From IMG/VR virus record IMGVR_UViG_3300031731_000008, positions 1-40,441 of that record: 40,441 nucleotides of DNA; one strand, 5' to 3'. A program made the translations under genes and the position numbers. Below, one piece after another: positions 7,767-27,113 of this stretch (within the stretch, counting starts at the first letter, position 1; each line of letters begins with the position of its first letter). The notes beneath the pieces are model-generated. The model saw nothing but the letters and a program-made list of their open reading frames with translations. It searched no databases and was not told the DNA's origin. The stretch is from a virus.

Positions 7767-7772
7767 GCGGCG

Positions 7773-11210: not shown

Positions 11211-11215
11211 GGGGT

Positions 11216-12597: not shown

Positions 12598-12660
12598 GGT
12601 GTCGGTCCTTCCGATCCGGGTCCGGGGTCCCTCCCCGTGCGGTAGTTACACTGTAGCACG
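12598..12660 (-). promoter_or_regulatory. conserved early promoter/5'-leader cassette, copy P5 (also the divergent region for the ParB-like gene)
   Basis: minus: CGTGCTACAGTGTAACTACCGCACGGGGAGGGACCCCGGACCCGGATCGGAAGGACCGACACC-ATG. The plus strand of the same box reads TACACT (12647..12652), about 38 nt before ATG 12691. Confidence 0.6.
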
Positions 12661-12690
12661 GATCACGGCCGCTCAGGTACAGTGGTTCAC

Positions 12691-13269
12691 ATGGCAGACT
12701 CCACCCCCCTTGTGCGGGACCTCGGGACCCCGACCGTCGTGCCCATCGGCACCATCAAGCCCGCGAAGAACAACCCCCGACGCATCCCGGCGCGCGCCGT
12801 CGAGATGGTCGCTCACTCCCTCCGCGCGTTCGGCTGGCAACAGCCGATCATCGTGGACCGGGACGGGGTGATCGTCGCCGGGCACACACGGCTCCAGGCG
12901 GCGAAGACGCTCGGGCTGAAGCACGTCCCCGTGATCGCCGCGGACCTCACCCCGGAGGAGGCTCGCGCCTACCGGGTCGCGGACAACCGCACGGCCGACT
13001 TCACGTCGTGGGACTTCCCCGAACTCGCCCGCGAACTGGAGGCCATCGGGGAGGAGTTCGCGGACGTGCTCGGCCTGGCCGACTGGCAGGGCATCATGGA
13101 CGACTTCGAGAACGCCGGGACCTCCGACGACGATGACGCTGTGGCGGCCGCGGGGGGCTCCTCCGGGTTTGACGTGGTGGTCACCTTCGAGACGAAGGAC
13201 GAGGCGCTCGCCGCCTCCGAGGCGCTGTTCGATCTGGGGGCTGTCGATGTTCGTCACAAGCGAGGCTGA
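12691..13269 (+). CDS. ParB-like nuclease domain protein
   Basis: IKPAKNNPRRI..QQPIIVDRDGVIVAGHTRLQAAKTLGLKHVPV..ARAYRVADNR matches the ParB/Srx N-terminal domain; acidic linker; ATG 12691 preferred over GTG 12682. Confidence 0.75.
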   Translation: MADSTPLVRDLGTPTVVPIGTIKPAKNNPRRIPARAVEMVAHSLRAFGWQQPIIVDRDGVIVAGHTRLQAAKTLGLKHVPVIAADLTPEEARAYRVADNRTADFTSWDFPELARELEAIGEEFADVLGLADWQGIMDDFENAGTSDDDDAVAAAGGSSGFDVVVTFETKDEALAASEALFDLGAVDVRHKRG

Positions 13270-14242
13270 CCGTGGGGGGCTCCTCGTCTCCGTCATCACT
13301 GGAGGCCGCCCCCTCCTGAAGCAGAGGACCGTGGGCCGGTTCTTCGAGCAGATGCACGCGGCCGGGGTGGCCGACATTGTGTGGGTCGCGAACGAGCGTC
13401 ACGCCGACGACCTGGAGCCCGACGAGCATGAGGTCGTGACGTACTCCGACGACTGGGCCTACGAGTACGCGAGTGAGCACTGGATGAGCCCTGACACCCC
13501 GCCGGAGCGTGGGGGGTTCTTCGGGGCGTTCCCCGGCCGGGAGGCGGCCGCACGTGAGGCGGAGCGTCGAGGGTGCTGGGGCGTGCTCCAGTTGGATGAC
13601 AATATCGACCGGATCATGTTCGTCCGGGACACGCGCGGCGGCAACAAGGTCATCCAGGACCTCGGCGGCTTCGCGTTCTTCGTGGACATGCTCACGGCCG
13701 TCTCGCGCTCCACGAACGCCCGCACCGTGGGGGCGCAACTCTCCTCCATCCCGGAGCCCGAGTTCAAGATCGCGCGGCCCGGCTTCCCCTACTCGCTGTT
13801 CATCGAGCGCGTCGGGGAGGGACGCGAGGAGTGGTTCGGGCCCTACGAGGACGACATAACGCACAGCCTCCAGTACGGCGACCGCGCCGATGGCTCCACC
13901 GCCGCCATCGTGCCGATGATCCGTTACCACAAGGAGAACACCAGCAAGACGGGCATGCGGGCGAAGTACAACCACGAGCGCTCGAAGATGCTCCAGCGTC
14001 TCCAGCCGCACGTGGCGAAGGTCGGCGTCCGCGCCACGCGCTCGAATGGTCAAGGCGGCGCGCGCGTCTTCCACTCCATGCCTGCCGGTGCGATCCGTAA
14101 CCCGCTCGCCGTGCATGACCACGACCTGTACGGAGCGGCCCGTGAGGCCCTCGTGGCGGCGACGGGGCAGTGGAAGGTGGCTGAGCGTGAGGGGAACCGC
14201 GCGAAGGCGATGGAGCGGGCCGCGAAGGCCGCTGGGAAGTGA
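13247..14242 (+). CDS. hypothetical enzyme-like protein (331 aa), possibly glycosyltransferase-like
   Basis: ATG 13247, overlaps the ParB-like gene by 23 nt. LLVSVITGGRP strand-loop start and LQLDDNI (DxD-like) suggest a GT-A-like fold. Weak, by eye only. Confidence 0.25.
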   Translation: MFVTSEADRGGLLVSVITGGRPLLKQRTVGRFFEQMHAAGVADIVWVANERHADDLEPDEHEVVTYSDDWAYEYASEHWMSPDTPPERGGFFGAFPGREAAAREAERRGCWGVLQLDDNIDRIMFVRDTRGGNKVIQDLGGFAFFVDMLTAVSRSTNARTVGAQLSSIPEPEFKIARPGFPYSLFIERVGEGREEWFGPYEDDITHSLQYGDRADGSTAAIVPMIRYHKENTSKTGMRAKYNHERSKMLQRLQPHVAKVGVRATRSNGQGGARVFHSMPAGAIRNPLAVHDHDLYGAAREALVAATGQWKVAEREGNRAKAMERAAKAAGK

Positions 14243-14245
14243 AGC

Positions 14246-14277
14246 GGCCCCGACCTCGGGGGGATGAGGTCGGGGCC
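14246..14277. terminator. bidirectional hairpin terminator between convergent genes
   Basis: ggccccgacctc / gaggtcggggcc, perfect 12-bp stem, 8-nt loop, between stops at 14242 (+) and 14306 (-). Confidence 0.65.
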
Positions 14278-14305
14278 TACGCGCTGGGGACGCGGTGACG
14301 GGAGT

Positions 14306-14656
14306 CTACGCCCAGAGGACGCCAGCACCCTTGACGATGCGCTCGCGGCCGATCACGTCACCCTGCTCGCCGTTCTCGTACTCCTCGCGAACGTCGTAGG
14401 TCCCCAGGTGGTCGCCGGAGAACGGCCAGGCGTTGCCGTGGCGGGCGTAGTCCTCCTGGAGGTTGTGGGGGCCGGTCCACACGAGGTCGCGGCTCTTGGC
14501 GCACTCACGGGCGCGTGCCCCGGCGGTGCAGTCGTTCGTCTCGTCGGCGTAGACCTCCTCGAACCGGTCCTCGACCGGGACGCTGGGGTCGGCGTTCCAC
14601 TGGGCCGCGCAGACCATCTCGTAGTCGGCCTGGCTCATGTTGTCGTTGCTATTCAT
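14306..14656 (-). CDS. hypothetical protein (116 aa)
   Basis: ATG 14656 (MNSNDNMSQADYEM..) directly behind cassette P4. Confidence 0.65.
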   Translation of the reverse strand: MNSNDNMSQADYEMVCAAQWNADPSVPVEDRFEEVYADETNDCTAGARARECAKSRDLVWTGPHNLQEDYARHGNAWPFSGDHLGTYDVREEYENGEQGDVIGRERIVKGAGVLWA

Positions 14657-14716
14657 GGTCTGGGTCCTTCCCATCGGTGGGGGGCATCTCCCCCGCATAG
14701 GTGACACAGTAGCACA
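14657..14716 (-). promoter_or_regulatory. conserved early promoter/5'-leader cassette, copy P4
   Basis: minus: TGTGCTACTGTGTCACCTATGCGGGGGAGATGCCCCCCACCGATGGGAAGGACCCAGACC-ATG. Confidence 0.6.
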
Positions 14717-14732
14717 CCATGCGGGGGAGTGG

Positions 14733-15167
14733 TTAGCCCAGCCGGACGCCCTCGTAGCGTGGCGGGTTCGCGGGCTCCACGTAGGGGGCGAAGCGCTCCA
14801 GGTGCGCGATCACGACCTCACGGGGTGCGGGCGTCTTCCCTCCCTCGTCGTCGGCCAGCCACCACGTCTGCGAGGGCGCATGCCAGAACGGAATCTCGGT
14901 CGGGTCGTCGTACTTCGAGATTTTCCACCCCATGCGGCGAGCGCGCTCCGCCTCACGGGCGTCCTGCTCCAGCCGGACGTTCAGCATGACCTCCAGGATG
15001 ATCCCGTTCGAGGGGCGCTCTGCGCGTGCGCTCCCGCCCATGCCCTTGTCGAACCGGTGCTGGATGCTGAGGCCTTCGGTGACGCCCGTGGCCGCGCACA
15101 CCGCCCCGTCCCGCTTCGCGATCCTGGCGACCGTGAGTTTCGGGAAGGGGCGGGGGCGTGGAGTCAT
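14733..15167 (-). CDS. HNH endonuclease
   Basis: 144 aa; RDGAVCAATG..LSIQHRFDKGMGGS..PSNGIIL..N pattern typical of actinophage HNH proteins. Confidence 0.6.
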   Translation of the reverse strand: MTPRPRPFPKLTVARIAKRDGAVCAATGVTEGLSIQHRFDKGMGGSARAERPSNGIILEVMLNVRLEQDAREAERARRMGWKISKYDDPTEIPFWHAPSQTWWLADDEGGKTPAPREVVIAHLERFAPYVEPANPPRYEGVRLG

Positions 15168-15913
15168 CGGAGGATGAGCGAGGGCTGGATGAGGGCGCGG
15201 AAGTGTTCCCCGACCTCGGCCATCATCGGGCCCTGCTTGTGCCCGTTCGAGGGGGCTCCGGCGGTGATCTTGAACGGCTGGTACTTCGGCACCGTGGAGA
15301 ACACCTTGCGCAGGTGCTCGGGCATGAGCCCGAACGTCGGCGCGCCCTCCTCCTGCGGCTTCCAGTCGGCCAGGAGTTTCCAGACCGGCGGGTAGGTGGT
15401 GAAGCGTGCCCGGACGAAGACCTGGCGGAAGACCTCCACGTCGCCGTCGTGGACCCCGACCGTCGTGGTGAGCGTGGGGGCCCCTGCCGGGCCCATGGTG
15501 CCCTCGGTGATGGTGACGCGGGAGTACGAGAGCATGTCGCGCGAGACGGTGCTCTGGCGCTCGTTGAGGGTCGCGATCCGGGCGAGCGCGGCGCGTGGAA
15601 TGTAGAACTGCTCGTCCCAGTCGTCGGCTTCATCGTTCTGGGTGTAGCGGACCTCGGCGCGGCGCTCCCAGTCATCGAGCAGGGAGGCATAGCCCCGGAG
15701 GGCCTTCTCGTCCTTCGAGGCCGGTTCCTCCGGGCGCTCCGCGAACGCGAGGTCGTAGTCGCCCACGGTGTAGCGGTCGGTCGCGAGCAGGTGACGCTCA
15801 CGGATCACCGCATGCGTCAGGACGGGCGTCACGTCGTCATTCGAGACGTGGGGGAGGACGGCCGTCGCGGCTTCCTTCGCCGTGAAGAACGGCAGGGATA
15901 TGGTGCGAGTCAC
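15164..15913 (-). CDS. short DnaN (beta sliding clamp)-like protein
   Basis: 249 aa, GTG start. VLTHAVIRERHLLATDRYTV, IPRAALARI, FTTYPPVWKLL and the C-terminal ..ALIQPSLI align by eye to DnaN domain II-III landmarks (ATDGHRL, VPRK, RFPDYRRVL, ..VVMPMRL). Confidence 0.4.
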   Translation of the reverse strand: MTRTISLPFFTAKEAATAVLPHVSNDDVTPVLTHAVIRERHLLATDRYTVGDYDLAFAERPEEPASKDEKALRGYASLLDDWERRAEVRYTQNDEADDWDEQFYIPRAALARIATLNERQSTVSRDMLSYSRVTITEGTMGPAGAPTLTTTVGVHDGDVEVFRQVFVRARFTTYPPVWKLLADWKPQEEGAPTFGLMPEHLRKVFSTVPKYQPFKITAGAPSNGHKQGPMMAEVGEHFRALIQPSLILR

Positions 15914-15964
15914 TGGGGACCCCTTTCGTGGTTGAGGGGGCCCCGGAGGGCCCCCGGTGAGTGG

Positions 15965-16330
15965 TCAGTACGAGTAGTTGCGGTGGTAGACCGCGCCGCC
16001 GCGCGCGAACGGGGTGCCCTTGCTGGTCCAGTAGAGGCCATCGCGGGAGCGGCTCACCTGGCGCTCGGGGGCGTTCTCCACGATCATGCTCGCGCGCTCC
16101 TCGTCCGTGTAGGTGTGCGACCAGACGGGGAACGGGCCATCGAATCGTGCGGGCTCGTGGCCGGTGGTCTTGTCCACGATCTGGAGCGGCTTCACCCAGA
16201 CCGTCTTGCCCGAGGGGCTGACGCGGGTGATGACGTAGGGGTACGAGTCCTGCGGGTAGCAGAGCGTCATGCCGTCCCCGACCTGGGGCTGGTAGTCGCG
16301 GGCTTCCTGGGTGCGGTCCTGGTCGTTCAT
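15965..16330 (-). CDS. hypothetical protein (121 aa)
   Basis: ATG 16330 (MNDQDRTQEARDYQ..) directly behind cassette P3. Confidence 0.65.
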   Translation of the reverse strand: MNDQDRTQEARDYQPQVGDGMTLCYPQDSYPYVITRVSPSGKTVWVKPLQIVDKTTGHEPARFDGPFPVWSHTYTDEERASMIVENAPERQVSRSRDGLYWTSKGTPFARGGAVYHRNYSY

Positions 16331-16388
16331 GGTTTCGGTCCTTCCGAATGGTGGGGGCGTCTCCCCCGTGTGGTTACACAGTAGCACG
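16331..16388 (-). promoter_or_regulatory. conserved early promoter/5'-leader cassette, copy P3
   Basis: minus: CGTGCTACTGTGTAACCACACGGGGGAGACGCCCCCACCATTCGGAAGGACCGAAACC-ATG. Confidence 0.6.
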
Positions 16389-16568
16389 TCTTGCGAGGGC
16401 GGTGTGACACCCCCGGCAACGCGGCATGTCCTCCGGGGCGGTGCGCCCGTGGAGATGCCAGGCGATGCGGCCGCACATACTCATGCGGACGGAGGAGACC
16501 CGGATGCGGGCAGGGGACTCCCGGAGCGCGTGAGCACGCCGGGAGCCCTCTGCGGTCAACCACTTCAC
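16374..16568 (-). CDS. possible small Cys/His protein (64 aa, or 36 aa from an internal ATG)
   Basis: GTG in a GTGA overlap with the stop at 16565; ..MCGRIAWHLHGRTAPEDMPRCRGCH..; its TAA lies inside the P3 box; R-rich, so uncertain. Confidence 0.3.
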   Translation of the reverse strand: MKWLTAEGSRRAHALRESPARIRVSSVRMSMCGRIAWHLHGRTAPEDMPRCRGCHTALARRATV

Positions 16569-16963
16569 GCCGGGCCGTGCTGGGCTGACAGCCGATCCGT
16601 GTCCCGTTCCTTCACCAGGAGCGAGTGGAGCATGCGAATCTCCGTGTCGAGGTTGTCGATCCTCAGGAGCGTGGCCTTCGCGAGGCCCGCGGTCACCTGG
16701 CGCTGGGTGTCCAGTTCCACGACCTCCGGGTCCACCTTCGCCCACGTCTCCGCCTCCGCGTTCGTCTTCACCCCGTCGAGGAGGCGCTTCCGCATCTTGA
16801 TCGTTTCCTTCGCCGCATCGTACTGCGCATCCGACGTTCCCGCCGCCTGAATCTGTTCCTCGTAGAGGTCGATCTGCTCGTACCTCTGCCGAATGAGGTA
16901 CTCCATGCGGGGGAGCACGTCGGAGGGGACCGAGCGGTAAGCCCGATCCCCTCCAGCGCTCAT
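16565..16963 (-). CDS. hypothetical coiled-coil protein (132 aa)
   Basis: ATG 16963 in an ATGA overlap with the upstream stop (the track start 16981 is an alternative codon). Confidence 0.6.
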   Translation of the reverse strand: MSAGGDRAYRSVPSDVLPRMEYLIRQRYEQIDLYEEQIQAAGTSDAQYDAAKETIKMRKRLLDGVKTNAEAETWAKVDPEVVELDTQRQVTAGLAKATLLRIDNLDTEIRMLHSLLVKERDTDRLSAQHGPA

Positions 16964-17382
16964 CGCCTGTCCTCCGGCCAAACCTTCTCAGCGGCCTCCT
17001 GCGGCTCGCTGGCGGCCTCGGGTGCCGTGGTGGGCTCATCATCCGCGAGGAGGTCTGTGGGGCGCTCCTGCCCCTCCTCCTCGGCCAGTGAGTCCATCAT
17101 CTGTGCGAAGGCGTCGAACGCCTTGCGCTTGATCGCCGCGGCCGTGGCGGCACCCTCCGCGATCACGGCCATGCCCAGCGCCGCGGCGAGGACCATGTGC
17201 GAGTGCCCCTCCATGTCCGTCGCCAGGTGGGACGCGGTGCGCTGAGCGGACTCCTCGGAGCCCTCCATCGCGCCCATCGTGGCGACCTCCACGAGATGCG
17301 CCAGGAACGCCTCCGGGTCCGTGAGGTCCTCGACGGGCTCCTCGGCGGGGGCGTCCTTCGGCTTGCGGGTGAACAGTCCCAT
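16960..17382 (-). CDS. hypothetical acidic protein (140 aa)
   Basis: ATG 17382 overlaps the annealase TGA by 1 nt; MGLFTRKPKDAPAEEPVEDL.. Confidence 0.6.
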   Translation of the reverse strand: MGLFTRKPKDAPAEEPVEDLTDPEAFLAHLVEVATMGAMEGSEESAQRTASHLATDMEGHSHMVLAAALGMAVIAEGAATAAAIKRKAFDAFAQMMDSLAEEEGQERPTDLLADDEPTTAPEAASEPQEAAEKVWPEDRR

Positions 17383-18317
17383 CACTTTCCTGCTTCCGTG
17401 GTCGTGGGCTCCGCGGCGGGAGCCTCCTGGCCGGACTCGGCGGGTGCCGGGGCCGGTGTCTTCGGTGCCGCATCGACGGCCTGCTTGCGCTCCAGAACGG
17501 CCGACTTCACGGCCTGGGAGAGTTCGTTCCGGTCACGTGCCGCCTCCCAGATGGCGCGCAGTTTCTCGGGCGCTTCCGGGTCGTCCAGGGCGACCTCACG
17601 GATGGCCTTCAGCCAGTCGGTCGCGCCCTCCACTTCGCCGGTCGTCTGATTCACGACGGGCTCGGACTCCTCGGCCGGGGCGTGGTCCACCTCGTCGTTG
17701 CCGAGCGACACCTGCTGTTCGATGCCCTCCTGCACGTTCTCCGCGGTGCGGGTCTGTGCCGGGGGGAGGCCGACCATCGTGCCGCCGACGAGGGCCGACT
17801 GCTGGCCCTTGTTGTAGAGGCTGAGGCCGAACTGGTCACCGAGGGCGATGGCGGCGCGCTTCACCGAGAGGCTGATCGCGGACTTGTACGCGAGGTCGTG
17901 CGCGTCACCCCGTGAGGGCTGGCCCTGCGCCGTGGCGGTGGAGCCGTCCTCGTAGTGGGCGACGTACTCCCCATCGGGGTTACGCACGGTGAGGCGCACG
18001 AGGGCCCGATAACACACGTCCCAGCCGAAGTAGGTCTTGCCGTCACGCTTGCGAGTGCGCTCCGATCCCTCCTCGAACACGAGTTCCGTCTTCACCACGT
18101 CGAGGTCGTAGCCCCCGAAGCCGAAGACGCGGATCAGGTGCGCTCGAATGTCCTGCTGGGACACGTGCGAGTTGCCGTCCAGGTGGAGGACGCGCGCCGG
18201 GTTGATCGCCCCGAGGAGCGCGGCGACCTGGGCCGGGGTGAGGGTGCCCCTCGCGGGGACCTCCTGAACGGCGACCCCTACGCGCCCGATGATGCTGTTC
18301 TCGGTCTGCTCGACCAT
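17382..18317 (-). CDS. Rad52/Sak-type single-strand annealing protein
   Basis: 311 aa from ATG 18317; GDAHDLAYKSAISLSVKRAAIALGDQFGLSLY matches the Rad52/22 annealase signature; adjacent to the exonuclease. Confidence 0.65.
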   Translation of the reverse strand: MVEQTENSIIGRVGVAVQEVPARGTLTPAQVAALLGAINPARVLHLDGNSHVSQQDIRAHLIRVFGFGGYDLDVVKTELVFEEGSERTRKRDGKTYFGWDVCYRALVRLTVRNPDGEYVAHYEDGSTATAQGQPSRGDAHDLAYKSAISLSVKRAAIALGDQFGLSLYNKGQQSALVGGTMVGLPPAQTRTAENVQEGIEQQVSLGNDEVDHAPAEESEPVVNQTTGEVEGATDWLKAIREVALDDPEAPEKLRAIWEAARDRNELSQAVKSAVLERKQAVDAAPKTPAPAPAESGQEAPAAEPTTTEAGK

Positions 18318-18321
18318 GGCG

Positions 18322-19485
18322 TTACTCTCCCTTCTCCGCGGTGACGCGGAGACTCTCGACGGTGGTTGTGGTGCGGATGCGCTCCCGCTGCTTCTCCGTG
18401 AGGAGTTTCGCGTCGTATCCGGTGCGGGTGCTACGTGACAGAGTAGCACCATAACCGCCCTCGCGGAGGAGCACCTGGCGGCCGCTCTCCTGCCGCATGA
18501 TGCCCTTCAGGGTGGCGAGCGCCTCCTCCCGCTGGGTGACGGCGTTCTGGTACTCCGTGCGCTCCAGCACCGAGTCGGCCGCGGCGATGGTGGAGAGGGC
18601 CTCGCGGATCGCACCCTTGCGGGCCGTGACCTCCGGCGCGTCATCGAACTGGTCCTCGGTGTCCACGTAGGTCATCGGGGGCACGAGGTCGGCCTCATCC
18701 TGGAGCCAGGCGTTCGCGGCCTCGATCATCTTCAGGATGCGCTTCTCGTCGCGCTCGACCCAGATCCGCTCATGCCCGAGAATCTCCACGACGTTGCCCT
18801 GCTTGTCGCGCTTCACCTGGCGGTAGATGACGAGGACGCGCTCCGCCCCGGTGGTGAGCATCTGCCACTGGACCTGATCGAAGTAGTTCGCGGGGACGAC
18901 CGGCTTGCTCCGGGGCGTCTTCCGCCACGACTTCGAGCCCGTCTTGAACTCCGCGAGTTCGAGGGTGCATGAGCCGTCGTCCTGGAGGTCCACGTGCCGC
19001 CAGGCGTCGGGAGTGGAGCCGAACCGGTGATCCATCTCCCACACGACGAAGCCGTGAGTGAGGACGAACGGGCGCGTCTCGTGCGGGCCGTTCTTCTCGA
19101 CGTGCTCGTTCGCCTCCGCGAGGAGTTCCGGCTCGGCCAGGGTGCCGTAGTTCATCACCGTGAGGCTGAACCGCGAGAACACCGGGCGCTTGCCCTCCAT
19201 GCGCTCCCGCCACAGGTCCATCACCGAGGAGAACGGGTTCGTTCCCATCACGGTCGTCATGGCCGTCGCGGAGATGATGGAGCCCTGCGAGCGCACGCGC
19301 CGCCACTCCTCAATGTCGTCGGAGTGCGCGATGGTGAGGACGCCGGGAATGTCCCGGACCTCCAGCACCGTGTCAACGGCGGCCTCCGCCTCCACCAGCG
19401 CCGCATCGACCTCCTCCTGGGTGACGACGGCCTCGACGCTCTCGGCGCGCTCTACGGCCGCGCGGACCTCTGCGACCTCGCTCAT
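18322..19485 (-). CDS. YqaJ/RecE-like exonuclease (PD-(D/E)XK)
   Basis: 387 aa from ATG 19485; GSIISATAMTTVMGTNPFSSVMDLWRER..NYGTLAEPE..ELAEFKTGSK..YFDQVQWQMLTTG fits the YqaJ viral recombinase domain. Confidence 0.8.
   Translation of the reverse strand: MSEVAEVRAAVERAESVEAVVTQEEVDAALVEAEAAVDTVLEVRDIPGVLTIAHSDDIEEWRRVRSQGSIISATAMTTVMGTNPFSSVMDLWRERMEGKRPVFSRFSLTVMNYGTLAEPELLAEANEHVEKNGPHETRPFVLTHGFVVWEMDHRFGSTPDAWRHVDLQDDGSCTLELAEFKTGSKSWRKTPRSKPVVPANYFDQVQWQMLTTGAERVLVIYRQVKRDKQGNVVEILGHERIWVERDEKRILKMIEAANAWLQDEADLVPPMTYVDTEDQFDDAPEVTARKGAIREALSTIAAADSVLERTEYQNAVTQREEALATLKGIMRQESGRQVLLREGGYGATLSRSTRTGYDAKLLTEKQRERIRTTTTVESLRVTAEKGE
18427..18450 (-). promoter_or_regulatory. box-like palindrome inside the exonuclease gene (possible internal promoter/operator)
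   Basis: minus GGTGCTACTCTGTCACGTAGCACC: one mismatch to box GGTGCTACTGTGTCAC; arms GGTGCTAC/GTAGCACC are a perfect 8-bp inverted repeat; about 110 nt upstream of annealase ATG 18317. Confidence 0.3.
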
Positions 19486-19697: not shown

Positions 19698-19852
19698 CGG
19701 TTCACCTTTCGGATGGATGCCGCGAGTGCGGCGATGGCGACCAGGCCCCCGAGGAGGGCCGCGAATGCGACCTCCCCGTCATGGAGCACGGTCAGGTTGA
19801 GCACGCCCGCGAGTGCGGACGCGACGAGGAGGACGAGGGCCCAGAGGATCAC
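19694..19852 (-). CDS. small two-TM membrane protein (52 aa)
   Basis: GTG in a GTGA overlap; VILWALVLLVASALAGVLNLTVLHDGEVAFAALLGGLVAIAALAASIRKVNR translated by hand; ends in an ATGA overlap. Confidence 0.5.
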   Translation of the reverse strand: MILWALVLLVASALAGVLNLTVLHDGEVAFAALLGGLVAIAALAASIRKVNR

Positions 19853-20184
19853 CGGGCGACCTCGATAGTGAAGGTGAGGGCGGAGTTGGCTTCACGTGCG
19901 CTCGCGATCCACTCCTGAGCCTCGGTCCACGTCCATTCGAGGGGCTGGGTGAATGAGCCCGTGATCGGACCACCGGAGCCGTTCGGCCAGGTGCAGATGA
20001 TCCGGTAGAGACGGCGGGGGACCTCGGAGGCGCAGGTGGTGACCTCGCCCGATTCGCCGCGGAGGGTGACCATGCCGAGGAGGTCACCGTCGTGGACCTC
20101 GCGGATGGTGAACGGGTAGCCGTCGCGGTAGATGGGGAACGTCGTGATGCGATCCCGAGTGACGCGATCCTGGGTGTTGCTCAT
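19849..20184 (-). CDS. hypothetical protein (111 aa)
   Basis: ATG 20184 (MSNTQDRVTRDRITTF..) behind the cassette; the upstream part of the track ORF is non-coding. Confidence 0.65.
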   Translation of the reverse strand: MSNTQDRVTRDRITTFPIYRDGYPFTIREVHDGDLLGMVTLRGESGEVTTCASEVPRRLYRIICTWPNGSGGPITGSFTQPLEWTWTEAQEWIASAREANSALTFTIEVAR

Positions 20185-20284
20185 GTGCTCGGTCCTTCCG
20201 GCTGGGGTGCCCCTGGGGGCCTGTCCCTCCAGCATAGGTGCTAATGTGGCACGTGTCCAGTTCAATTCGAGAAAGGCAAGGGAC
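20185..20284. promoter_or_regulatory. divergent control region with quasi-palindromic box GGTGCTAATGTGGCAC (20237..20252)
   Basis: Minus: CGTGCCACATTAGCACCTATGCTGGAGGGACAGGCCCCCAGGGGCACCCCAGCCGGAAGGACCGAGCAC-ATG. Plus: TGCTAATGT, then about 38 nt to ATG 20285 of the XRE gene. Confidence 0.55.
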
Positions 20285-20641
20285 ATGACCCCAGCAGAGT
20301 TCAAGACGCTCCGAGAGGGCATGGGCCTGGCGGCCGAGGAAGTCGCCACCATGCTCGGCGTGACGCGCAAGACCGTGTTCGCCATGGAGTCCCCCACGCG
20401 GGCGCTCGACGTGCCAGAGGAGCACGCGGAGCGACTCCGAGAGTTCCACAAGGAGTTCCTGCGCGCCGTGTCGCGTGCAAAGCGCCGGAAGGTCCTCCCC
20501 CGGTTCACCGACGAGGAGCGGTTCCAGAAGGTCTACGGCGAGGGGCTCCCGCTCAGCGTCCAGGGCCCGCTCATCTACGCGGCGCAGGGCTTCCGCGCTG
20601 GCGAAACTGCGACCGTGGCACCCGTCGATTACGAGCGATGA
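20285..20641 (+). CDS. XRE/Cro-CI family helix-turn-helix protein
   Basis: 118 aa; LREGMGLAAEEVATMLGVTRKTVFAMES is a canonical HTH_XRE segment. Confidence 0.7.
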   Translation: MTPAEFKTLREGMGLAAEEVATMLGVTRKTVFAMESPTRALDVPEEHAERLREFHKEFLRAVSRAKRRKVLPRFTDEERFQKVYGEGLPLSVQGPLIYAAQGFRAGETATVAPVDYER

Positions 20642-20652
20642 GGGAACGGGAA

Positions 20653-20687
20653 AGGCCCCCGGCTGGAAGATTCCGAACCGGGGGCCT
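20653..20687 (+). terminator. hairpin after the XRE gene
   Basis: aggcccccgg / ccgggggcct, perfect 10-bp stem, 15-nt loop; no T-run. Confidence 0.4.
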
Positions 20688-20743
20688 ACGCTCCAGAGAT
20701 GCCCTGCCCTGGGTGCTTCACCACAACCACGAAGTGAGAACGC

Positions 20744-21478
20744 ATGAACGATAGCACGAGCGGATACACCACCGTTCCGAACTGGATGCTCGCCGCCGAG
20801 GACGTGACCCTGCACATGGTCGTCGTGTATGCCGCGCTCGGCACATGGACCGACCGGGAGGGCACGGCATGGCCCGCCATCCCAAAGATCGCGAAGCGGG
20901 CGAAGATCAGCGAGCGGAGCGCACGCCAGGCCCTCCGGGACCTCGAAGGGCTCGGGCTCGTGGAGACGCTGAGGAGGGCCGCGCCGGACGGCGGTCAGAC
21001 CTCGAACCTCTACCGCCTCCACACCACCGCGACCCCCCGGCAGGAGATGCAGGGGGGGGTGCAGGAGATGCAGGGGCCCCCTGCACGTGGTGCAGACGAA
21101 CAAGCACCACTAGAACAACCTCCTGCTAACGCAGGAGGAGAGAAGCGCGCACGCGCGACGAGAATCCCGGAGCCATTCATCGTCACGGCCGAGATGTGGG
21201 CCTGGTGCCACGAGAAGGGGTTCGACCTCCCATGGGCGAAGGAACAGACCGAGCGCTTCGTGGACTACTGGCGCGGCATCCCCGGCCAGCGGGGCACGAA
21301 ACTCGACTGGCCCGGCACGTGGCGGAACTGGCTCCGGCGCTCATGGGATGACCGGCGCGCACCCTCCGGCGCGTCCACGGCCCGCGAGACGCCCGACGAA
21401 CGGTTCCGCCGACTCATGGCCCAGGCGGAGGCGATGGAGACGCAGGCTGAGCCTGAGCGCCTGGCGGTCGAGGCGTGA
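20744..21478 (+). CDS. replication initiator / replisome organizer-like wHTH protein
   Basis: 244 aa; N-term wHTH (PKIAKRAKISERSARQALRDLEGLGLV); C-term FVDYWRGIPGQRGTKLDWPGTWRNWLRR motif common in phage replication organizers. Confidence 0.45.
   Translation: MNDSTSGYTTVPNWMLAAEDVTLHMVVVYAALGTWTDREGTAWPAIPKIAKRAKISERSARQALRDLEGLGLVETLRRAAPDGGQTSNLYRLHTTATPRQEMQGGVQEMQGPPARGADEQAPLEQPPANAGGEKRARATRIPEPFIVTAEMWAWCHEKGFDLPWAKEQTERFVDYWRGIPGQRGTKLDWPGTWRNWLRRSWDDRRAPSGASTARETPDERFRRLMAQAEAMETQAEPERLAVEA
21040..21076 (+). repeat. two 16-bp direct repeats at 21-bp spacing (iteron-like) inside the initiator gene
   Basis: gcaggagatgcagggg at 21040..21055 and 21061..21076, followed by near-palindrome tgcaggggccccctgca and further tgcag/ctgca copies up to ~21096. 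Confidence 0.5.
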
Positions 21479-21828
21479 GCCCCGCCGACGTGATCCGCCT
21501 GCTCGCCGTCATCGCCACGTTCGACAACCGGCGCGTGGAGGACTCCACCATCGCCGCATGGTCCTCCGTGTTCGATAGCACCCCGTGGACGTTCGACCAG
21601 TGCCGCGAGGCCGTCATCCGCCACTTCCGCGATTCGACGGACTACCTCCAGCCCGCGCACGTCATCCGAGGAGCCCGGATCGTCCGCGAGGAGGCCGAGC
21701 GCGAGGTCCGGCGTCACCGAGCCCTAAACCCGCTCCCGAGGGAGTACGGGGCCCCGAAGCCGGAGAACTTCGACGCCCTCGTGAGGCAGGCCGAGGAGGA
21801 GGCGCGATCAGCACGCTCCACGGGATAG
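21475..21828 (+). CDS. hypothetical protein (117 aa)
   Basis: GTG in a GTGA overlap with the initiator stop; track ORF. Confidence 0.6.
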   Translation: MSPADVIRLLAVIATFDNRRVEDSTIAAWSSVFDSTPWTFDQCREAVIRHFRDSTDYLQPAHVIRGARIVREEAEREVRRHRALNPLPREYGAPKPENFDALVRQAEEEARSARSTG

Positions 21829-21831
21829 ACT
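21826..21831 (+). promoter_or_regulatory. -10-like TAGACT upstream of ssb
   Basis: gggaTAGACTgtcacc...acggaggccattGTG; overlaps the stop codon of the preceding gene. Confidence 0.3.
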
Positions 21832-21867
21832 GTCACCACGAATCACCACTACGAAACGGAGGCCATT

Positions 21868-22365
21868 GTGGCCGGAGAAACTGTCATTACCGTCGTCGGG
21901 AACCTCACCGCCGACCCTGAACTGCGCTACACCCAGAACGGCCGCGCCGTCGCGAACATGACCATCGCGAGCACGCCGCGCACGTTCGACCGCCAGGCGA
22001 ACGAGTGGAAGGACGGCGAGGCGCTGTTCCTCCGCGCATCCGTCTGGCAGGAGTTCGCTGAGCACGTCGCCGGATCGCTCCACAAGGGCTCCCGCGTGAT
22101 CGCCCAGGGACGCCTCACCCAGCGCTCCTACCAGGACCGCGAGGGCAACAACCGCGTGAGCATCGAACTCGAAATCGACGCCATCGGTCCCGACCTCCGC
22201 TACGCGACCGCACAGGTGACGCGCGCCGCGAAGGGCCAGGGAGGGCAGGGCGCACCACGCCAGGCCCAGCAGGCCGTCACGGATGAGCCGTGGAGCACTC
22301 CCGGATCGTCCACCGAGGACGCCTGGAGCACGCCGGGATCGTTCGGAGACGACACCCCGTTCTGA
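21868..22365 (+). CDS. ssb: single-stranded DNA-binding protein
   Basis: 165 aa; [31 protein letters not shown]-fold start, G/Q-rich linker, acidic tail ending DDTPF. Confidence 0.9.
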
Positions 22366-22372
22366 CCGACAC

Positions 22373-22405
22373 GCGAGGGCGGGGTCCACGTGGCTCCGCC
22401 CTCGC
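22373..22405 (+). terminator. hairpin between ssb and rusA (attenuator/terminator)
   Basis: gcgagggcgg / ccgccctcgc, perfect 10-bp stem; the 13-nt loop itself contains ccacgtgg. Confidence 0.4.
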
Positions 22406-22423
22406 TCTGTATCTGGAGACACC

Positions 22424-22858
22424 ATGCGACTGTTCATCCCCGGCACCCCCGTCCAGCAGGGCTCACTCATCCCCCGCGTCATCTTCGTGAAGGGCCGACC
22501 TCGCGCCGTCCTCCACTCCCACAATTCCGAGGGCCTGAAGCGCTGGCGCAAGGCCGTGAGCGCCGCTGTCGCCGCCGAGATGGACGCGCTCGGCATGGAG
22601 GGACCCCTCGGGCCCTACGTCGCCATCTCGGCCGTGTTCCAGATGCCGAAGCCGAAGACGACGAAGTACCCCGACTATCCAGGAGGGACGCCCGACCTCG
22701 ACAAACTCCAGCGCGCCGTGGGGGACGCCCTCACCGCCTCCGGGATCGTCCAGGATGACGCCCGGATCGTCCGCTGGCACACCGACGAGACGTGGGCTGG
22801 GGGCCTCGGCTCACTCTCCGCCGAGCCCGGCCTGTGGCTGGAGGTCACCGACCGATGA
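22424..22858 (+). CDS. rusA: RusA-like Holliday junction resolvase
   Basis: 144 aa from ATG 22424; PDLDKLQRAVGDALTASGIVQDDARIV matches the RusA catalytic motif (DLDNL..K...DAL....DD..V). Confidence 0.8.
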   Translation: MRLFIPGTPVQQGSLIPRVIFVKGRPRAVLHSHNSEGLKRWRKAVSAAVAAEMDALGMEGPLGPYVAISAVFQMPKPKTTKYPDYPGGTPDLDKLQRAVGDALTASGIVQDDARIVRWHTDETWAGGLGSLSAEPGLWLEVTDR

Positions 22859-23112
22859 TCCTCCTGACTCCCGAGCAAGCCGCGGAGGAGTTCGGCATCG
22901 CGCGCCGCACGGTCGCCTACTGGGCCGAACACAACCTCATCCGCTCCCACGTCAGGGAAGACACGGAGCGGCCTCAGCGGGGCGGTCACCCCGGCTACAG
23001 GGTGGAGCGCGCGCAGGTGGCGGAACGGGTCAGGCAGATGCCGCGGCGCGGCGTGCGGCGCTCACCGTCGCCCGGCTCACCCGAGCCTCGTCCTGTACCT
23101 GATCCCACGTAG
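22855..23112 (+). CDS. MerR/excisionase-type HTH DNA-binding protein
   Basis: 85 aa from ATG 22855 (ATGA overlap); LLTPEQAAEEFGIARRTVAYWAEHNLI. The R/P-rich tail overlaps the convergent gene. Confidence 0.55.
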   Translation: MILLTPEQAAEEFGIARRTVAYWAEHNLIRSHVREDTERPQRGGHPGYRVERAQVAERVRQMPRRGVRRSPSPGSPEPRPVPDPT

Positions 23113-23254
23113 CGCCCTCATCGAGACGCCGGTTGATCGCGTCGTTCCGGCAGGACCTCCACCAGGCGAGGGCACCCTCCGCGCGCTCGACCTCATCGGC
23201 CAGTTCGGGGAGGGGCTTAGCCCGATCATCGAACGGGTGGAGGTCGGCTGTCAT
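23030..23254 (-). CDS. small HTH-like protein (74 aa), leaderless, opposite orientation to its neighbours
   Basis: ATG 23254 lies 7 nt after TAGACT; GATWDQVQDEARVSRATVSAARR resembles an HTH; balanced composition. Confidence 0.55.
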   Translation of the reverse strand: MTADLHPFDDRAKPLPELADEVERAEGALAWWRSCRNDAINRRLDEGATWDQVQDEARVSRATVSAARRAAASA

Positions 23255-23370
23255 GCGGGTCAGTCTACCCGCTGAACACGCCGTAGCCCGCCTGGGCTGG
23301 TGCTCACCCCGCCACGGGTGCTAGGTTGGCACATGTCACCCCAACGGGGGTGCGAATCGGAAGGACCGAC
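23255..23370. promoter_or_regulatory. divergent control region: box GGTGCTAGGTTGGCAC (23317..23332), leader cassette P7, and GGGTAGACT (23267..23262) for the leaderless minus gene
   Basis: Plus: GGTGCTAGGTTGGCACATGTCACCCCAACGGGGGTGCGAATCGGAAGGACCGAC-ATG. Minus: gcgggTAGACTgacccgcATG. Confidence 0.55.
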
Positions 23371-23592
23371 ATGCAGACCATCATCCCTAACGCGCAGGCC
23401 CGCGGCACGCTCGAATCGCTCGTGTCCCCGGCGTCACTCGCGGAGAATGCCGACGAACTCCTCGGGCACATTGCCGTCCGAGTGGATGCCATCGCCCCCG
23501 ACGTGATGGCCGCGTTCGCCCTCCTCGGCGCGACCCGCGTGGACATGCTCCGCCACCTAGCACACGAGGCTATCGAGGCGGCGTTCGAGTGA
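23371..23592 (+). CDS. hypothetical protein (73 aa)
   Basis: ATG 23371 (MQTIIPNAQARG..) directly behind cassette P7. Confidence 0.6.
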   Translation: MQTIIPNAQARGTLESLVSPASLAENADELLGHIAVRVDAIAPDVMAAFALLGATRVDMLRHLAHEAIEAAFE

Positions 23593-23816
23593 GCCGCCGG
23601 AGCCGGACCCCGATCTTCGACGCACTCGCCGCGCGCTACCGCGAGGGGCCCGCACCACGCGAGCGCTCGTGGGCTCTCGACGCCTACATGCGGGGATTCA
23701 CCTACGGGCTCGTGCTCCAGGACACACTCCCCCCGAAGCGTCAGCACGTGCTCACGCACTCGTCCCCCTGGGACGCCATCGACCACACTCCGAACAAGCA
23801 TGATCCATCACTCTGA
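23589..23816 (+). CDS. hypothetical protein (75 aa)
   Basis: GTG in a GTGA overlap; track ORF. Confidence 0.5.
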   Translation: MSRRSRTPIFDALAARYREGPAPRERSWALDAYMRGFTYGLVLQDTLPPKRQHVLTHSSPWDAIDHTPNKHDPSL

Positions 23817-23828
23817 AAGGCAAGCACC

Positions 23829-24122
23829 ATGACCGATGCAGTCAAGACCCTGAGCCGCGAGATTCGACGCGCGAAGGGCGTCAAGTCCGGGACCGTCGTC
23901 ACCTTCACCCGAACCATCGAGTTCGTGGAGGGCATCCGGCGCGACGAGCACGTGACCCGCACGTTCGACTACGCCGCGATCTTCGTCGGCGGCCGCTGGT
24001 TCTTCACCGGCAAGGGCGGACTCGGCCAGTCCGCGCTCACGAACCGCGAGTTCCTGGACCGCATGGCGGAGCCCGACATCTCCCGCGTCCGCGTGGCGAC
24101 CAACTTCGAGCGGGTGTCCTGA
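23829..24122 (+). CDS. hypothetical protein (97 aa)
   Basis: track ORF; SD-like aaagg upstream. Confidence 0.6.
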   Translation: MTDAVKTLSREIRRAKGVKSGTVVTFTRTIEFVEGIRRDEHVTRTFDYAAIFVGGRWFFTGKGGLGQSALTNREFLDRMAEPDISRVRVATNFERVS

Positions 24123-24754
24123 TGGCCCGCGTCCACCGCGTCCAGCGGTCCAACAAGGAACACACCTGCGGGCACTCCCCGACGCACGTGATCCCGAAGG
24201 GCGACCCGTACCTCTGGGCGAAGCCCGGATTCCGCACCCGCACCCCGAAGGTCCGTTGCGTGGAGCACCCGTTCCGCCCCTCCGAACTCGCCACCGGCCT
24301 GAACGCCGAGCCGATGGCGGCGCAGGAGGACTTCAACGCCACGCTGGGCACGCTGGAGGCCCACGACTATGACGGCCTGACCGCCGCCGTGGATGAGTTC
24401 CGCGAGGCGCTGGAGGCGTACCGGGACGCCCGGCAGGAGGCGCTCGACGCCTGGGAGAACGGCAACAGCCAGTTCGAGGAGTGGCTGGAGGAGGCCGAGG
24501 AGGCCCTGAGCGCTCTGGAGAATCTGGAGGTCGAGGAGTGGGACGAGGAGGAGCCGCTCAACGAGACGACGGAGCCCGAGCCCGACGCCGCCGACTTCGA
24601 GGAGGAGTCCGACTACGACGCGGCCGTGGAGCGCTGGCAGGAGGCGCAGGACGACGCCGAATCCGAGTGGGATGACTGGAACTCGCGCCGCGACCAGCAC
24701 TGGGACGACCAGATCAGCGAAGCCTCCGAGGCATCCGCGAGCGTGTCACTGTGA
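24122..24754 (+). CDS. hypothetical protein: basic Cys/His N-domain plus very acidic Trp-rich C-domain
   Basis: 210 aa; N-term ..HTCGHSPTHVIPKGDPYLWAKPG..VRCVEHPF; the C-terminal ~140 aa are dominated by D/E with EEW/DDW repeats. Confidence 0.6.
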   Translation: MARVHRVQRSNKEHTCGHSPTHVIPKGDPYLWAKPGFRTRTPKVRCVEHPFRPSELATGLNAEPMAAQEDFNATLGTLEAHDYDGLTAAVDEFREALEAYRDARQEALDAWENGNSQFEEWLEEAEEALSALENLEVEEWDEEEPLNETTEPEPDAADFEEESDYDAAVERWQEAQDDAESEWDDWNSRRDQHWDDQISEASEASASVSL

Positions 24755-25281
24755 CCGGGGGCGCGCTCATGTACGGCGGCACGGAGGGCTCCAGCGGGTC
24801 CAGCGCTTCACACGAGCGCGCCACCCGAGAGGCACGCGACGGCACGGCCACGGCCCGCCAGACCGTCCTCCTGGACTCCCTCGCGGAGGCGGGGGCGGAG
24901 GGGCTCACGTGGCGGGAACTGGGGACCGCCGCGGGGCTCCACCATGGGCAGGTTACTGGGGGCCTGTCCAACCTCCACAAGGCGGGCATGATCGCCCGTC
25001 TGACGCTGAAGCGGGGGCGGTGCTCCGTCTACGTGCTACCCGAGCACGTGGAGGGACGCGCCACCGTCGCGCAGGGGCGTCGGGATGCCGAGACGAGTCC
25101 GGTAGGGTTCCCCTTCCGGCAGGGTGCTCATCTCGTGCTGGGGCCTGACGTTCACGCGACCATCGACGGCGAGTTCATCGTCTGGAATGGTCGCCGCTAT
25201 CACCCCGTCGATGTGCACGACTCCTCGCGGGTCGAGCCGATGGATGACCAGGGGCGACGGCCACTGTTCGACCTCGATTGA
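24751..25281 (+). CDS. winged-helix (MarR-like) DNA-binding protein candidate
   Basis: 176 aa; LTWRELGTAAGLHHGQVTGGLSNLHKAGMIARL resembles a wHTH recognition unit; start GTG 24751 or ATG 24769. Confidence 0.35.
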   Translation: MTGGALMYGGTEGSSGSSASHERATREARDGTATARQTVLLDSLAEAGAEGLTWRELGTAAGLHHGQVTGGLSNLHKAGMIARLTLKRGRCSVYVLPEHVEGRATVAQGRRDAETSPVGFPFRQGAHLVLGPDVHATIDGEFIVWNGRRYHPVDVHDSSRVEPMDDQGRRPLFDLD

Positions 25282-25297
25282 CGGGGCTCTGGGGCTG

Positions 25298-25339
25298 AGG
25301 GTCCGTGCGTTGTGGGGATGACGCACGGGCCCTCTTTTT
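25298..25339 (+). terminator. rho-independent terminator
   Basis: agggtccgtgcgt / acgcacgggccct, 13-bp stem (one G-U), followed by cTTTTT. Confidence 0.75.
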
Positions 25340-25364
25340 CGTGATTGGACACCCCACGGCCAGG

Positions 25365-25425
25365 GGTGCTACTGTGTAACCACGCGGGGCCCACACGGGG
25401 CCCTCCACCGGAAGGACCGGACACC
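25365..25425 (+). promoter_or_regulatory. conserved early promoter/5'-leader cassette, copy P1
   Basis: GGTGCTACTGTGTAACCACGCGGGGCCCACACGGGGCCCTCCACCGGAAGGACCGGACACC-ATG; possible -35 TTGGAC at 25344..25349. Confidence 0.6.
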
Positions 25426-25668
25426 ATGGCCACCATTCAGCGCAAGACGCTCACCCTCACCATCGACCTCGAAGGTGCCGCATTCAACGACGGATTCGGG
25501 GACCTCGAAATCGGGAACCTTCTCCGGGAAGCGGCCGCGAAGATCGAGGGAGGCGCACTCGCGGAGAACGGGGCGCGCATCGCCACCGGGCGCGGCATCG
25601 ACCTCATCGACTCCAACGGCAACCGCGTCGGATACGCGGGCGTCACCCTGAAGCGGACCCGAGTCTGA
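25426..25668 (+). CDS. hypothetical protein (80 aa)
   Basis: ATG 25426 (MATIQRKTLTLTIDLEG..) behind P1. Confidence 0.6.
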   Translation: MATIQRKTLTLTIDLEGAAFNDGFGDLEIGNLLREAAAKIEGGALAENGARIATGRGIDLIDSNGNRVGYAGVTLKRTRV

Positions 25669-25708
25669 ACACGCCGTGCGCCCGAGGGATTGTGACCCAC
25701 GGGCGCAC

Positions 25709-25754
25709 GGTGCTACTGTGACACCACAACCACCACCCGAAAGGATCGGACCCC
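25709..25754 (+). promoter_or_regulatory. conserved early promoter/5'-leader cassette, copy P2 (short variant)
   Basis: GGTGCTACTGTGACACCACAACCACCACCCGAAAGGATCGGACCCC-ATG; lacks the GC hairpin; SD-loop stem is CCGA/TCGG. Confidence 0.55.
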
Positions 25755-26748: not shown

Positions 26749-26750
26749 CC

Positions 26751-27077: not shown

Positions 27078-27113
27078 AGCGCTGTGCGCCCGCCTGCGGG
27101 CCTAAAACGAGTC

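Follow-up and report, generated by a model that had tools for sequence, protein, structure and literature searches.

In the IMG/VR virus record IMGVR_UViG_3300031731_000008, analysed here over its full 40,441 nt (the window), an intergenic sequence cassette recurs between positions 12,598 and 25,754 in front of early genes, raising the question of what reads it and what keeps it so constant. A preliminary description, made from the letters alone, recognised seven copies (P1 to P5, P6' and P7), likened them to the start-associated sequences (SAS) or stoperators of mycobacteriophages, and suggested a dedicated regulator or RNA-level control of the early genes. We propose, with a probability of roughly 0.7, that the cassette is a portable early-expression module read by the host, in which an extended -10 promoter, a 5' protective hairpin (hairpin 1), a Shine-Dalgarno (SD) sequence set in a covarying mini-hairpin and an ATG follow one another. 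Our confidence is higher for the assignments of a promoter and of a ribosome-binding site (RBS) and for the SD stem; it is lower for what hairpin 1 does and for a part in recombination.

The preliminary description had staked its proposal in part on motif frequency and on conservation in related genomes, and both came out in its favour. All seven regions were recovered at the positions and on the strands first reported, and each runs into the ATG of a gene on its own strand (Table 1). The promoter box GTGCTANNNTG occurs exactly nine times in the window, compared with 0.19 ± 0.42 expected from dinucleotide-preserving shuffles. The SD box GGAAGGACC occurs exactly six times, compared with 0.64 ± 0.79; six is also the number counted by eye beforehand, and the exact copies are all within 12604-25418 and all on the strand of the downstream gene. 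Allowing one mismatch in GGAAGGACC yields 22 matches where 16 are expected and abolishes the enrichment, and hence the signal resides in the exact copies. The joint pattern GTGCYANNNT-N20-50-GRAAGGAYC was found six times and never in shuffles, with P2 falling outside it by one base of spacing (19-nt gap, variant GAAAGGATC). Seven of the nine exact boxes stand at unit heads, while two lie within genes (2414-2424 and 18439-18449, both on the minus strand). The reading GTGCTAC(T/A)GTG..AC given for five copies is correct and describes P1-P5; the opening (G/C)GTGC given for every copy needs correction for P4, which starts with TGTGC.

The window represents the whole genome of a Microbacterium foliorum-type phage and matches Gingerbug (ON970592), DelaGarza (MT889371) and Lesiram (PP978869) with ~79-88% nucleotide identity over most of its length, the relatives being reversed and circularly permuted. 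An exact 127-bp direct repeat is common to both ends (1-127 = 40315-40441), so the window can be taken as a circular assembly of a complete ~40.3 kb genome. Gingerbug proteins mapped onto it place the non-structural genes at ~9280-27080, the rest being structural and lysis genes on the minus strand. It was found that the cassettes are kept at orthologous sites in all three relatives, even where the downstream gene differs, and that they are also present in two IMG/VR contigs and four metagenome contigs. Proteins of one of the IMG/VR contigs (L125) share no more than 29-78% identity with their counterparts in the window, indicating that the cassette outlasts considerable divergence. Among GenBank phages searched by BLAST, the whole cassette was returned from Gingerbug, DelaGarza and Lesiram only. 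Over 185,579 species genomes, the joint pattern of box and SAS had six matches, in unrelated taxa and none in a Microbacterium record, the SAS alone being too short for such a scan. A loose pattern, GTGCTANNNTG-N20-50-GGAAGGA, returned single chance-like matches only over viral contigs and was replaced by a stricter one, for which most metagenome and all species-genome matches are chance occurrences in unrelated taxa. No Rfam family was reported at gathering thresholds across the whole window. A 21-nt exact match to CGTGCTACTGTGTAACCACAC was seen in Streptomyces phage Sycamore (MT701593, 34059-34079), within a gene annotated as hypothetical and with E=0.1; it may be due to chance.

A logo of 35 distinct cassette copies aligned on the box shows G-16, T-15, G-14, A-11 and T-7 to be invariant (35/35). 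Conservation is also high for C-13 (33/35), T-12 (30/35, the five exceptions being P6'-type pseudo-boxes), G-6 (29/35) and A-3/C-2 (34/35). The three middle bases of the hexamer are free to vary among orthologues (TACTGT, TAATGT, TACTCT, TAGGTT, TACATT, TAACCT), and upstream of the box there is just a faint T at ~-36. Sigma-A promoters of Corynebacterium glutamicum, as established by start mapping, have a TAnnnT hexamer, a weak -35 and frequently an extended -10, and about one third of the mRNAs are leaderless (PMC3890552). A generic -35/-10 scan of the window finds P6' only. We infer that the box is an actinobacterial sigma-A-type extended -10 promoter (TGn + TAnnnT) with no need of a -35 element. 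The earlier reading as TGn-TAnnnT is thus upheld, since only the nnn positions vary among orthologues. Host sigma-A would read G-16TGCTAnnnT-7G as the extended -10, and transcription is predicted to start 7-8 nt past the hexamer, at the purine (A or G) next after the conserved AC(C/T). This distance is calibrated by three heads of other units in the window (Table 1), taken to produce leaderless transcripts.

The same box could instead be mainly an operator of 17-23 bp, to which a phage helix-turn-helix (HTH) protein binds over the -10 and switches the early units together in the manner of a stoperator. Conservation does extend past TGn-TAnnnT, at C-13, G-6 and A-3/C-2, and the box is partly palindromic, with GTGC-N7-GCAC in P7 and in the box at 20238. 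Furthermore, a copy inside the exonuclease gene has a 7-nt inverted repeat (GTGCTAC...GTAGCAC) in a 23-nt island kept in a distant relative, and several HTH proteins are encoded, the candidates being those starting at 20285, 20744, 22855, 23254, 24751 and 9215. However, the right half-site is variable (TAAC, TCAC, ACAC, GCAC), and the variable positions are exactly the nnn of the -10 hexamer. Sites are found at expected promoter positions only, in each case directed towards the gene. Neither an integrase nor an immunity repressor is annotated in the three relatives or was identified by Pfam among the early proteins of the window. We consider a mainly operator function possible though doubtful; an operator overlapping the promoter could coexist with the host-read module. 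The stoperator analogy fails on the same grounds. Cluster A stoperators are likewise short asymmetric repeats, oriented with transcription and present many times per genome, but they are repressor sites scattered through the genomes of temperate phages, whereas the boxes are found only at promoter positions and are read as a -10.

In seven of seven copies, 3-8 nt separate the ATG from the second conserved block, G(G/A)AAGGA(C/T)C. The flanks of its AAGGA core are complementary and change together, giving a 4-bp stem. This stem is TCGG/CCGA in P5 and P7, CCGG/CCGG in P1 and in P3 of the relatives, TTCGG/CCGAA in P3 of the window, and CCGA/TCGG in P2. In P4 it is TGGG/CCCA in the window and Gingerbug, TCTGG/CCAGA in DelaGarza and CTGG/CCAG in Lesiram; three of the four L125 copies have CGGG/CCCG and the fourth GGGG/CCCC. 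Covariation was tested on 28 distinct sequences (112 cells of the 4-bp helix) with 500 shuffles of the partners. Standard pairs fill 97.3% of the cells compared with 77.6% after shuffling, and double-sided changes, seen in three of the four pairs, account for 23 cells compared with 6.7. The covariation score of 0.563 (0.196 when shuffled) was reached by 0 of the 500 shuffles. Sliding the partner by 1-3 columns as a control reduced pairing to 48% or less, and RNAalifold, unaided, returned the SD helix and no other. A fifth stem pair is unsupported, with 3 of 24 cells pairing. As a protein dimer on an inverted DNA repeat would keep base identity rather than complementarity, the conserved flanks are best read as pairing in an RNA stem, established in this phage group only. 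The earlier suggestion of RNA-level control thereby gains support.

When paired with the textbook 16S 3' end (not that of the host), the cassette SD is mid-range in energy, at -9 to -10.4 kcal/mol compared with -12 to -18 kcal/mol for other genes. Its invariant CC adds nothing to the SD:anti-SD duplex, suggesting that CC serves the stem and not rRNA pairing. This invariant or covarying 3' CC outside the rRNA pairing bears out the original remark that conservation exceeds the needs of a promoter and an SD. At about -4 to -5 kcal/mol the stem is weak, and would thus display or insulate the site instead of obstructing it. In the mechanism we propose, the AAGGA core would be held in the 5-nt loop of the 4-bp stem (N-C-G-G / C-C-G-N), which may leave the ribosome site accessible and make its efficiency independent of the gene that follows. 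The sequence ACCGGAAGG, seen at 25406-25420 and in the other SD hairpins, presumably makes up the 5' half and the loop of helix 45 as well, close to the actinobacterial 16S 3' end (..GUACCGGAAGGUGCGG..); the register differs and the resemblance may be coincidence.

The SD hairpin could also be a translational operator, in which a phage or host RNA-binding protein reads the AAGGA loop on its stem and controls the cassette-led genes jointly. T4 RegA and CsrA/RsmE are parallels, being proteins that bind GGA-containing loops. An invariant loop on a covarying stem is what protein-binding RNA hairpins typically show, the stem alone is too weak to keep ribosomes out, and the SD is sub-maximal. If this were true, all early cassette-led genes would form one post-transcriptional regulon, and the same logic would explain the SAS motif of the cluster EF phages considered below, possibly SAS more widely. 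However, pairing with 16S rRNA already explains the invariance of the loop. Pfam, applied to 40 early proteins, identified several HTH domains, SSB, Rad52, ParB_N, a TAGT glycosyltransferase and a zinc finger, and among them no sigma factor, RNA polymerase or RNA-binding domain. Nor did tblastn of 44 early proteins give a match in the non-structural right arm (20000-56707) of the EF phage AnnaSerena, despite the near-identical SAS there. Thus no SAS reader encoded by both phages comes into view, a result in favour of host machinery, although it is absence of evidence only. We regard joint translational control as quite unlikely, while noting that a regulator of the RNA hairpin could coexist with the host-read module. 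The dedicated regulator first suggested is not supported either: HTH proteins are present, none is linked to the box, and neither a sigma factor nor an RNA-binding domain was detected. As a host-read module, the cassette would be a compact, probably host-only expression unit for Microbacterium genetics.

Between the box and the SD hairpin most copies carry hairpin 1, in agreement with the G/C hairpin earlier said to follow the box "usually". These hairpins cannot be aligned with one another (opposite polarity, different lengths), and stem counts were instead compared with random windows. In 27 of 35 copies a perfect stem, at least 5 bp long, encloses a loop of 3-8 nt, compared with 11.8% of same-size random windows of this genome. 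In every case the stem starts 9-13 nt past the hexamer, that is 2-6 nt from the predicted 5' end. The stems differ in sequence (GGGGG/CCCCC, CGGGG/CCCCG, GGGCCC/GGGCCC, TGGCCCC/GGGGCCA, GAGGGGG/CCCCCTC, GCCCC/GGGGC), and that of P7 is of opposite polarity (CACCCC/GGGGTG). Minimum free energy (MFE) folds from the predicted start give the same two-hairpin picture in all copies. No U-tract follows hairpin 1, ACC or CACC being found there instead. The transcript would hence open with 2-6 free bases followed by a 5-7-bp G+C hairpin of variable sequence, most likely a 5'-terminal stem-loop that shields the mRNA from 5'-end-dependent decay.

Hairpin 1 might alternatively be a terminator or attenuator that blocks read-through from the upstream unit, as was proposed for the stem-loops of the promoter-early stem-loop (PeSL) cassettes of T4-like phages. 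Hairpin 1 is G+C-rich and does lie in intergenic sequence between co-directional genes, and comparable PeSL stem-loops lowered reporter expression (PMC2839356). On the other hand, the clear terminators of this genome, at 25297-25344 (+) and 27114-27143 (-), consist of long stems followed by a T-run, and hairpin 1 has no U-tract. Moreover, it lies downstream of the cassette's own promoter and would attenuate its own unit too. A role in termination thus appears very unlikely, and 5' protection is favoured because the U-tract is missing while evident terminators have a long stem and a T-run.

The genes served by the cassettes are variable. Of the seven cassette-led first genes, six have no Pfam family and the seventh encodes a DUF2786 protein. 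The P3 and P4 cassettes of the window are 0.78-0.87 identical to those of the relatives, whereas the following 300 nt show no relationship (0.09-0.45). The window has no homologue of Gingerbug gene 39, which follows P7, or of gene 55, which follows P3; between relatives, replacement has affected the genes after P3, P4 and P7, and P1 together with its 80-aa gene is absent from DelaGarza and Lesiram. Since cassette identity is retained next to unrelated sequence, the cassettes persist while the genes behind them are swapped. Being near-identical and flanking variable small ORFans, they may mark, and possibly promote, the exchange of modules.

Taken further, the cassettes could be chiefly recombination modules, like PeSLs, with their similarity kept by exchange or gene conversion and expression being secondary. 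They do sit at junctions of conserved and unrelated sequence, the P1 cassette and gene that come and go among the relatives are bounded by boxes sharing GGTGCTACTGTG, and PeSLs of the same composition, including poly-G/poly-C stem-loops, stand upstream of ORFans (PMC2839356). Yet homogenisation alone yields neither a TA...T hexamer that is invariant outside a variable nnn nor compensatory changes in a stem, and the identical stretches are short (11-17 nt). We consider recombination unlikely as the chief function.

Several observations weigh against the host-read module or limit it. Promoter use and the start site are predicted from sequence only, and the conservation of C-13, G-6 and A-3/C-2 goes beyond the known requirement of sigma-A, which leaves room for an extra DNA-binding factor. 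Whole-leader folding energies are ordinary compared with dinucleotide shuffles (z 0.04 to -2.1), so thermodynamics alone cannot back the hairpins. Hairpin 1 is missing in P2 and has no common alignment on which a formal covariation test could be made. The sequences behind the SD stem are few and related (~7 paralogue families, ~9 genomes), so that independent compensatory events number perhaps 6-8. Finally, in the cluster K phage Fionnbharth (K4), six of eight start-adjacent SAS sites deviate from the cluster K motif GGGATAGGAGCCC and all six break the outer pairing uncompensated. An extension of the RNA stem to cluster K was accordingly rejected, and the stem reading may not generalise to all SAS, with the qualification that this is one K4 genome and a small sample.

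How, then, does the cassette relate to described systems? The likeness to start-associated sequences first noted from the window is right, and closer than was then apparent, as the cluster EF phages have GGGAAAGGACCCC in the same architecture. The SD block is an asymmetric motif at the RBS position with conservation beyond 16S pairing; it occurs in one orientation, in the non-structural region, in gaps of 40-100 nt and before ATG starts in seven of seven cases. The cassette thus belongs to a published class, that of SAS and extended SAS (ESAS), and is not a new kind; the new point is the covarying SD stem.

Ten copies of GGGAAAGGACCCC with an upstream ESAS were described in cluster EF (AnnaSerena, Krampus), their role being called unclear (Jacobs-Sera et al. 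2020; PMC7302621). The EF phages infect the same host species, and their SAS shares the core of the cassette (GGGAAAGGACCCC compared with cGGAAGGACCg), stands 2-6 nt before the start codon, is confined to the non-structural region and always faces the gene. Scanning AnnaSerena with up to two mismatches, we found nine SAS sites, eight of which adjoin a start codon. The order of elements there is a GTAGCG(A/G)AA block, TAnnnT (TATAGT, TAGAGT, TAGACT, TAAACT), a G+C hairpin in about half of the leaders, GGG-AAAGGA-CCC, and the start codon, and the G/C flanks around the SD could pair. In contrast to the cassette, the EF element has this second block ~17 nt before the hexamer and no TGn, its loop would be 6 nt rather than 5 nt, and its flanks are invariant and thus give no covariation. 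AnnaSerena also differs from the window in its size (56.7 kb) and in having all genes rightward.

The SAS of cluster K, GGGATAGGAGCCC, is a 13-bp asymmetric sequence 3-7 nt before mostly ATG starts, whose GGG...CCC outer parts cannot pair with 16S rRNA and which precedes non-structural genes with large intergenic gaps (Pope et al. 2011; PMC3203893). About half of these sites have an upstream element that contains a promoter. The cluster K ESAS, situated just before the SAS, are pairs of 17-bp imperfect inverted repeats around a variable spacer, with -35/-10 hexamers, for which the authors favoured a DNA-binding site over an RNA hairpin (PMC3203893), and ESAS have been read as SigA-like promoters in Adephagia (PMC11373665). 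The cassette resembles this arrangement in RBS position, G/C-symmetric outer parts, association with non-structural genes and an upstream element, here with a putative promoter, and differs in sequence and in that cluster K phages are temperate. No conserved 17-bp inverted repeat of the cluster K ESAS type was found upstream of the cassettes, which have instead an 11-17-nt direct box GTGCTACTGTGnnAC and a variable short G+C hairpin. SAS have been reported since 2011 without a mechanism, and in papers of 2024 and 2025 their role is still termed ill-defined or said to require verification by experiment, the latter in a survey (PMC12699233). The cassettes supply natural variation that is absent from the published examples, with paralogous and orthologous copies changing both sides of the flank together. 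This turns a descriptive motif into a testable hypothesis, namely that a 4-bp RNA stem shows AAGGA in its loop.

PeSL cassettes (Arbiol et al. 2010, PMC2839356; Comeau et al. 2014, PMC4122927) provide the other close parallel. They too combine a host-sigma early promoter, a poly-G/poly-C stem-loop, an SD and a start codon, repeated upstream of ORFans; they too lie in plastic regions and bound the indels and replacements between related genomes, and both features are found here. They differ in their Gram-negative hosts, full -35/-10 promoter and AT-rich upstream region, in a stem-loop that is variable in position and acts as a terminator, and in having no SD-in-loop hairpin. Mini-circle formation has been shown for PeSL.

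The coordinates of the cassettes and of other unit heads are collected in Table 1.

Table 1 Cassettes, other unit heads and terminators in the 40,441-nt window.
Feature	Position (strand)	Box and promoter elements	Hairpin 1 or leader	SD hairpin	Start codon and remarks
P5	12595..12659 (-)	box GTGCTACAGTG 12649-12659; -10 TACAGT 12650-12655	CGGGG-aggga-CCCCG 12623-12637	TCGG-AAGGA-CCGA 12602-12614	ATG 12595-12597 (243-aa DUF2786 protein)
P4	14654..14715 (-)	box 14705-14715; -10 TACTGT 14706-14711	GGGGG-agatg-CCCCC 14680-14694	TGGG-AAGGA-CCCA 14661-14673 (third stem pair G-C, not C-G)	ATG 14654-14656
P3	16328..16387 (-)	box 16377-16387; -10 TACTGT 16378-16383	GGGGG-agacg-CCCCC 16353-16367	TTCGG-AAGGA-CCGAA 16334-16348	ATG 16328-16330; box overlaps 3' end of upstream gene 16374-16568
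P6' (variant)	20182..20259 (-)	probable promoter TGGACA 20254-20259 / 17 nt / TATGCT 20231-20236; box of the preliminary description GTGCCACATT 20243-20252	longer imperfect structured leader 20201-20233	CGG-AAGGA-CCG 20190-20200	ATG 20182-20184
P7	23318..23373 (+)	box GTGCTAGGTTG 23318-23328; -10 TAGGTT 23322-23327	reversed polarity, CACCCC-aac-GGGGGTG 23337-23352	TCGG-AAGGA-CCGA 23357-23369	ATG 23371-23373
P1	25366..25428 (+)	box 25366-25376; -10 TACTGT 25370-25375	25386-25404	CCGG-AAGGA-CCGG 25408-25420	ATG 25426-25428 (80-aa gene); canonical terminator just before
P2	25710..25757 (+)	box 25710-25720; -10 TACTGT 25714-25719	none	CCGA-AAGGA-TCGG 25737-25749 (closing pair A-U, not G-C, both sides changed)	ATG 25755-25757
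Box-only head	20238..20287 (+)	box GTGCTAATGTG 20238-20248; -10 TAATGT 20242-20247	plain leader with GAGAAAGG		ATG 20285, HTH_3-like 118-aa protein; kept in all relatives including L125
Box within exonuclease gene	18428..18450 (-)	GGTGCTACTCTGTCACGTAGCAC			~120 nt upstream of Rad52-like gene start 18317
Putative leaderless head, gene before terminase (7766 -)	7764-7778 (-)	TAGACT or TACAGT 6-7 nt before ATG		no usable SD	
Putative leaderless head, small protein (23254 -)	23252-23267 (-)	TAGACT or TACAGT 6-7 nt before ATG		no usable SD	Gingerbug homologue annotated HTH DNA-binding
Putative leaderless head, ParB-like gene (12691 +)	12678-12693 (+)	TAGACT or TACAGT 6-7 nt before ATG		no usable SD	
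Intrinsic terminator	25297..25344 (+)				17-bp stem then TTTTT; ends P7 unit just before P1
Intrinsic terminator	27114-27143 (-)				12-bp stem then T-run; between convergent early and lysis units

Unit heads fall into three classes: box plus two hairpins (six copies, together with P6', which has its own promoter), box only (one) and leaderless (three). The claim that the cassette heads essentially every early unit is thus overstated, the figure being ~7 of 11 heads, with three leaderless and one (20285 +) having the box with a plain leader. The three leaderless heads are probable, and the relatives keep their TAnnnT hexamers, with variation confined to the nnn; the gene preceding the terminase probably heads the late operon. 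The assignment of a box to P6' does not stand, as GTGCCACATT is the reverse complement of the box GTGCTAATGTG of a divergent rightward promoter. This divergent promoter, not P6', probably owns it, and the TATGCT of P6' is present in all relatives. P3 and P4 lie within a co-directional gene array devoid of terminators, and hence represent additional internal starts rather than isolated units.

The box in the exonuclease gene belongs to a 23-nt stretch, GGTGCTAnnCTGTCACGTAGCAC in the alignment with L125, that is invariant save for two nnn positions of the hexamer while its flanks have diverged. The distant relative that keeps this island has ~49% amino-acid identity. Of the eight codons of the island, five have A or T as their last base, the gene having a G+C content at third codon positions (GC3) of 0.92 (P = 1.5e-4). 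These codon endings, and the conservation of 23 nt amid diverged flanks, argue for selection on the island as DNA. It is probably an internal promoter for the Rad52-like gene, or an operator. A further exact box, GTGCTACCGTG, found in all four genomes, lies at 2414-2424 (-) inside the scaffolding-protein gene, with the major capsid gene ~250 nt downstream of it. Its conservation is uninformative, as it falls within ~75 nt that do not vary among the four; possibly it serves the capsid gene as an internal promoter.

Two RBS flavours were noticed in the window, structural and lysis genes having mostly GGAGG/AGGAG near the start and many early genes GAAAGG/GGAAGG 8-10 nt from it, which matches two registers on one 16S 3' tail. 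The divergent unit at 12691-14242 (+) consists of two genes, one for a protein with a ParB_N domain and one for a protein of 331 aa with a match to the TET-associated glycosyltransferase family (PF20691, E=4e-17), which hints at a function in DNA base modification; no TET-like gene was noticed in the window.

The cassette also provides a transcription map for a poorly studied phage cluster and corrects start codons in the deposited relatives. The annotated starts of Gingerbug genes 58 and 61 (34196 and 36388) lie upstream of or within a cassette (boxes 34168 and 36390; SD boxes 34211 and 36436). These start codons are probably mis-annotated, the cassette predicting ATGs ~30 and ~65 nt further downstream, as in DelaGarza. 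In DelaGarza itself, GTTCAGCGGGTAGACTGCCCTGCATG at ~25085-25100 (+) corresponds to the leaderless promoter-plus-ATG of the small HTH-annotated gene and lies inside an unannotated gap (24983-25218), in which the record may lack a gene that should be annotated.

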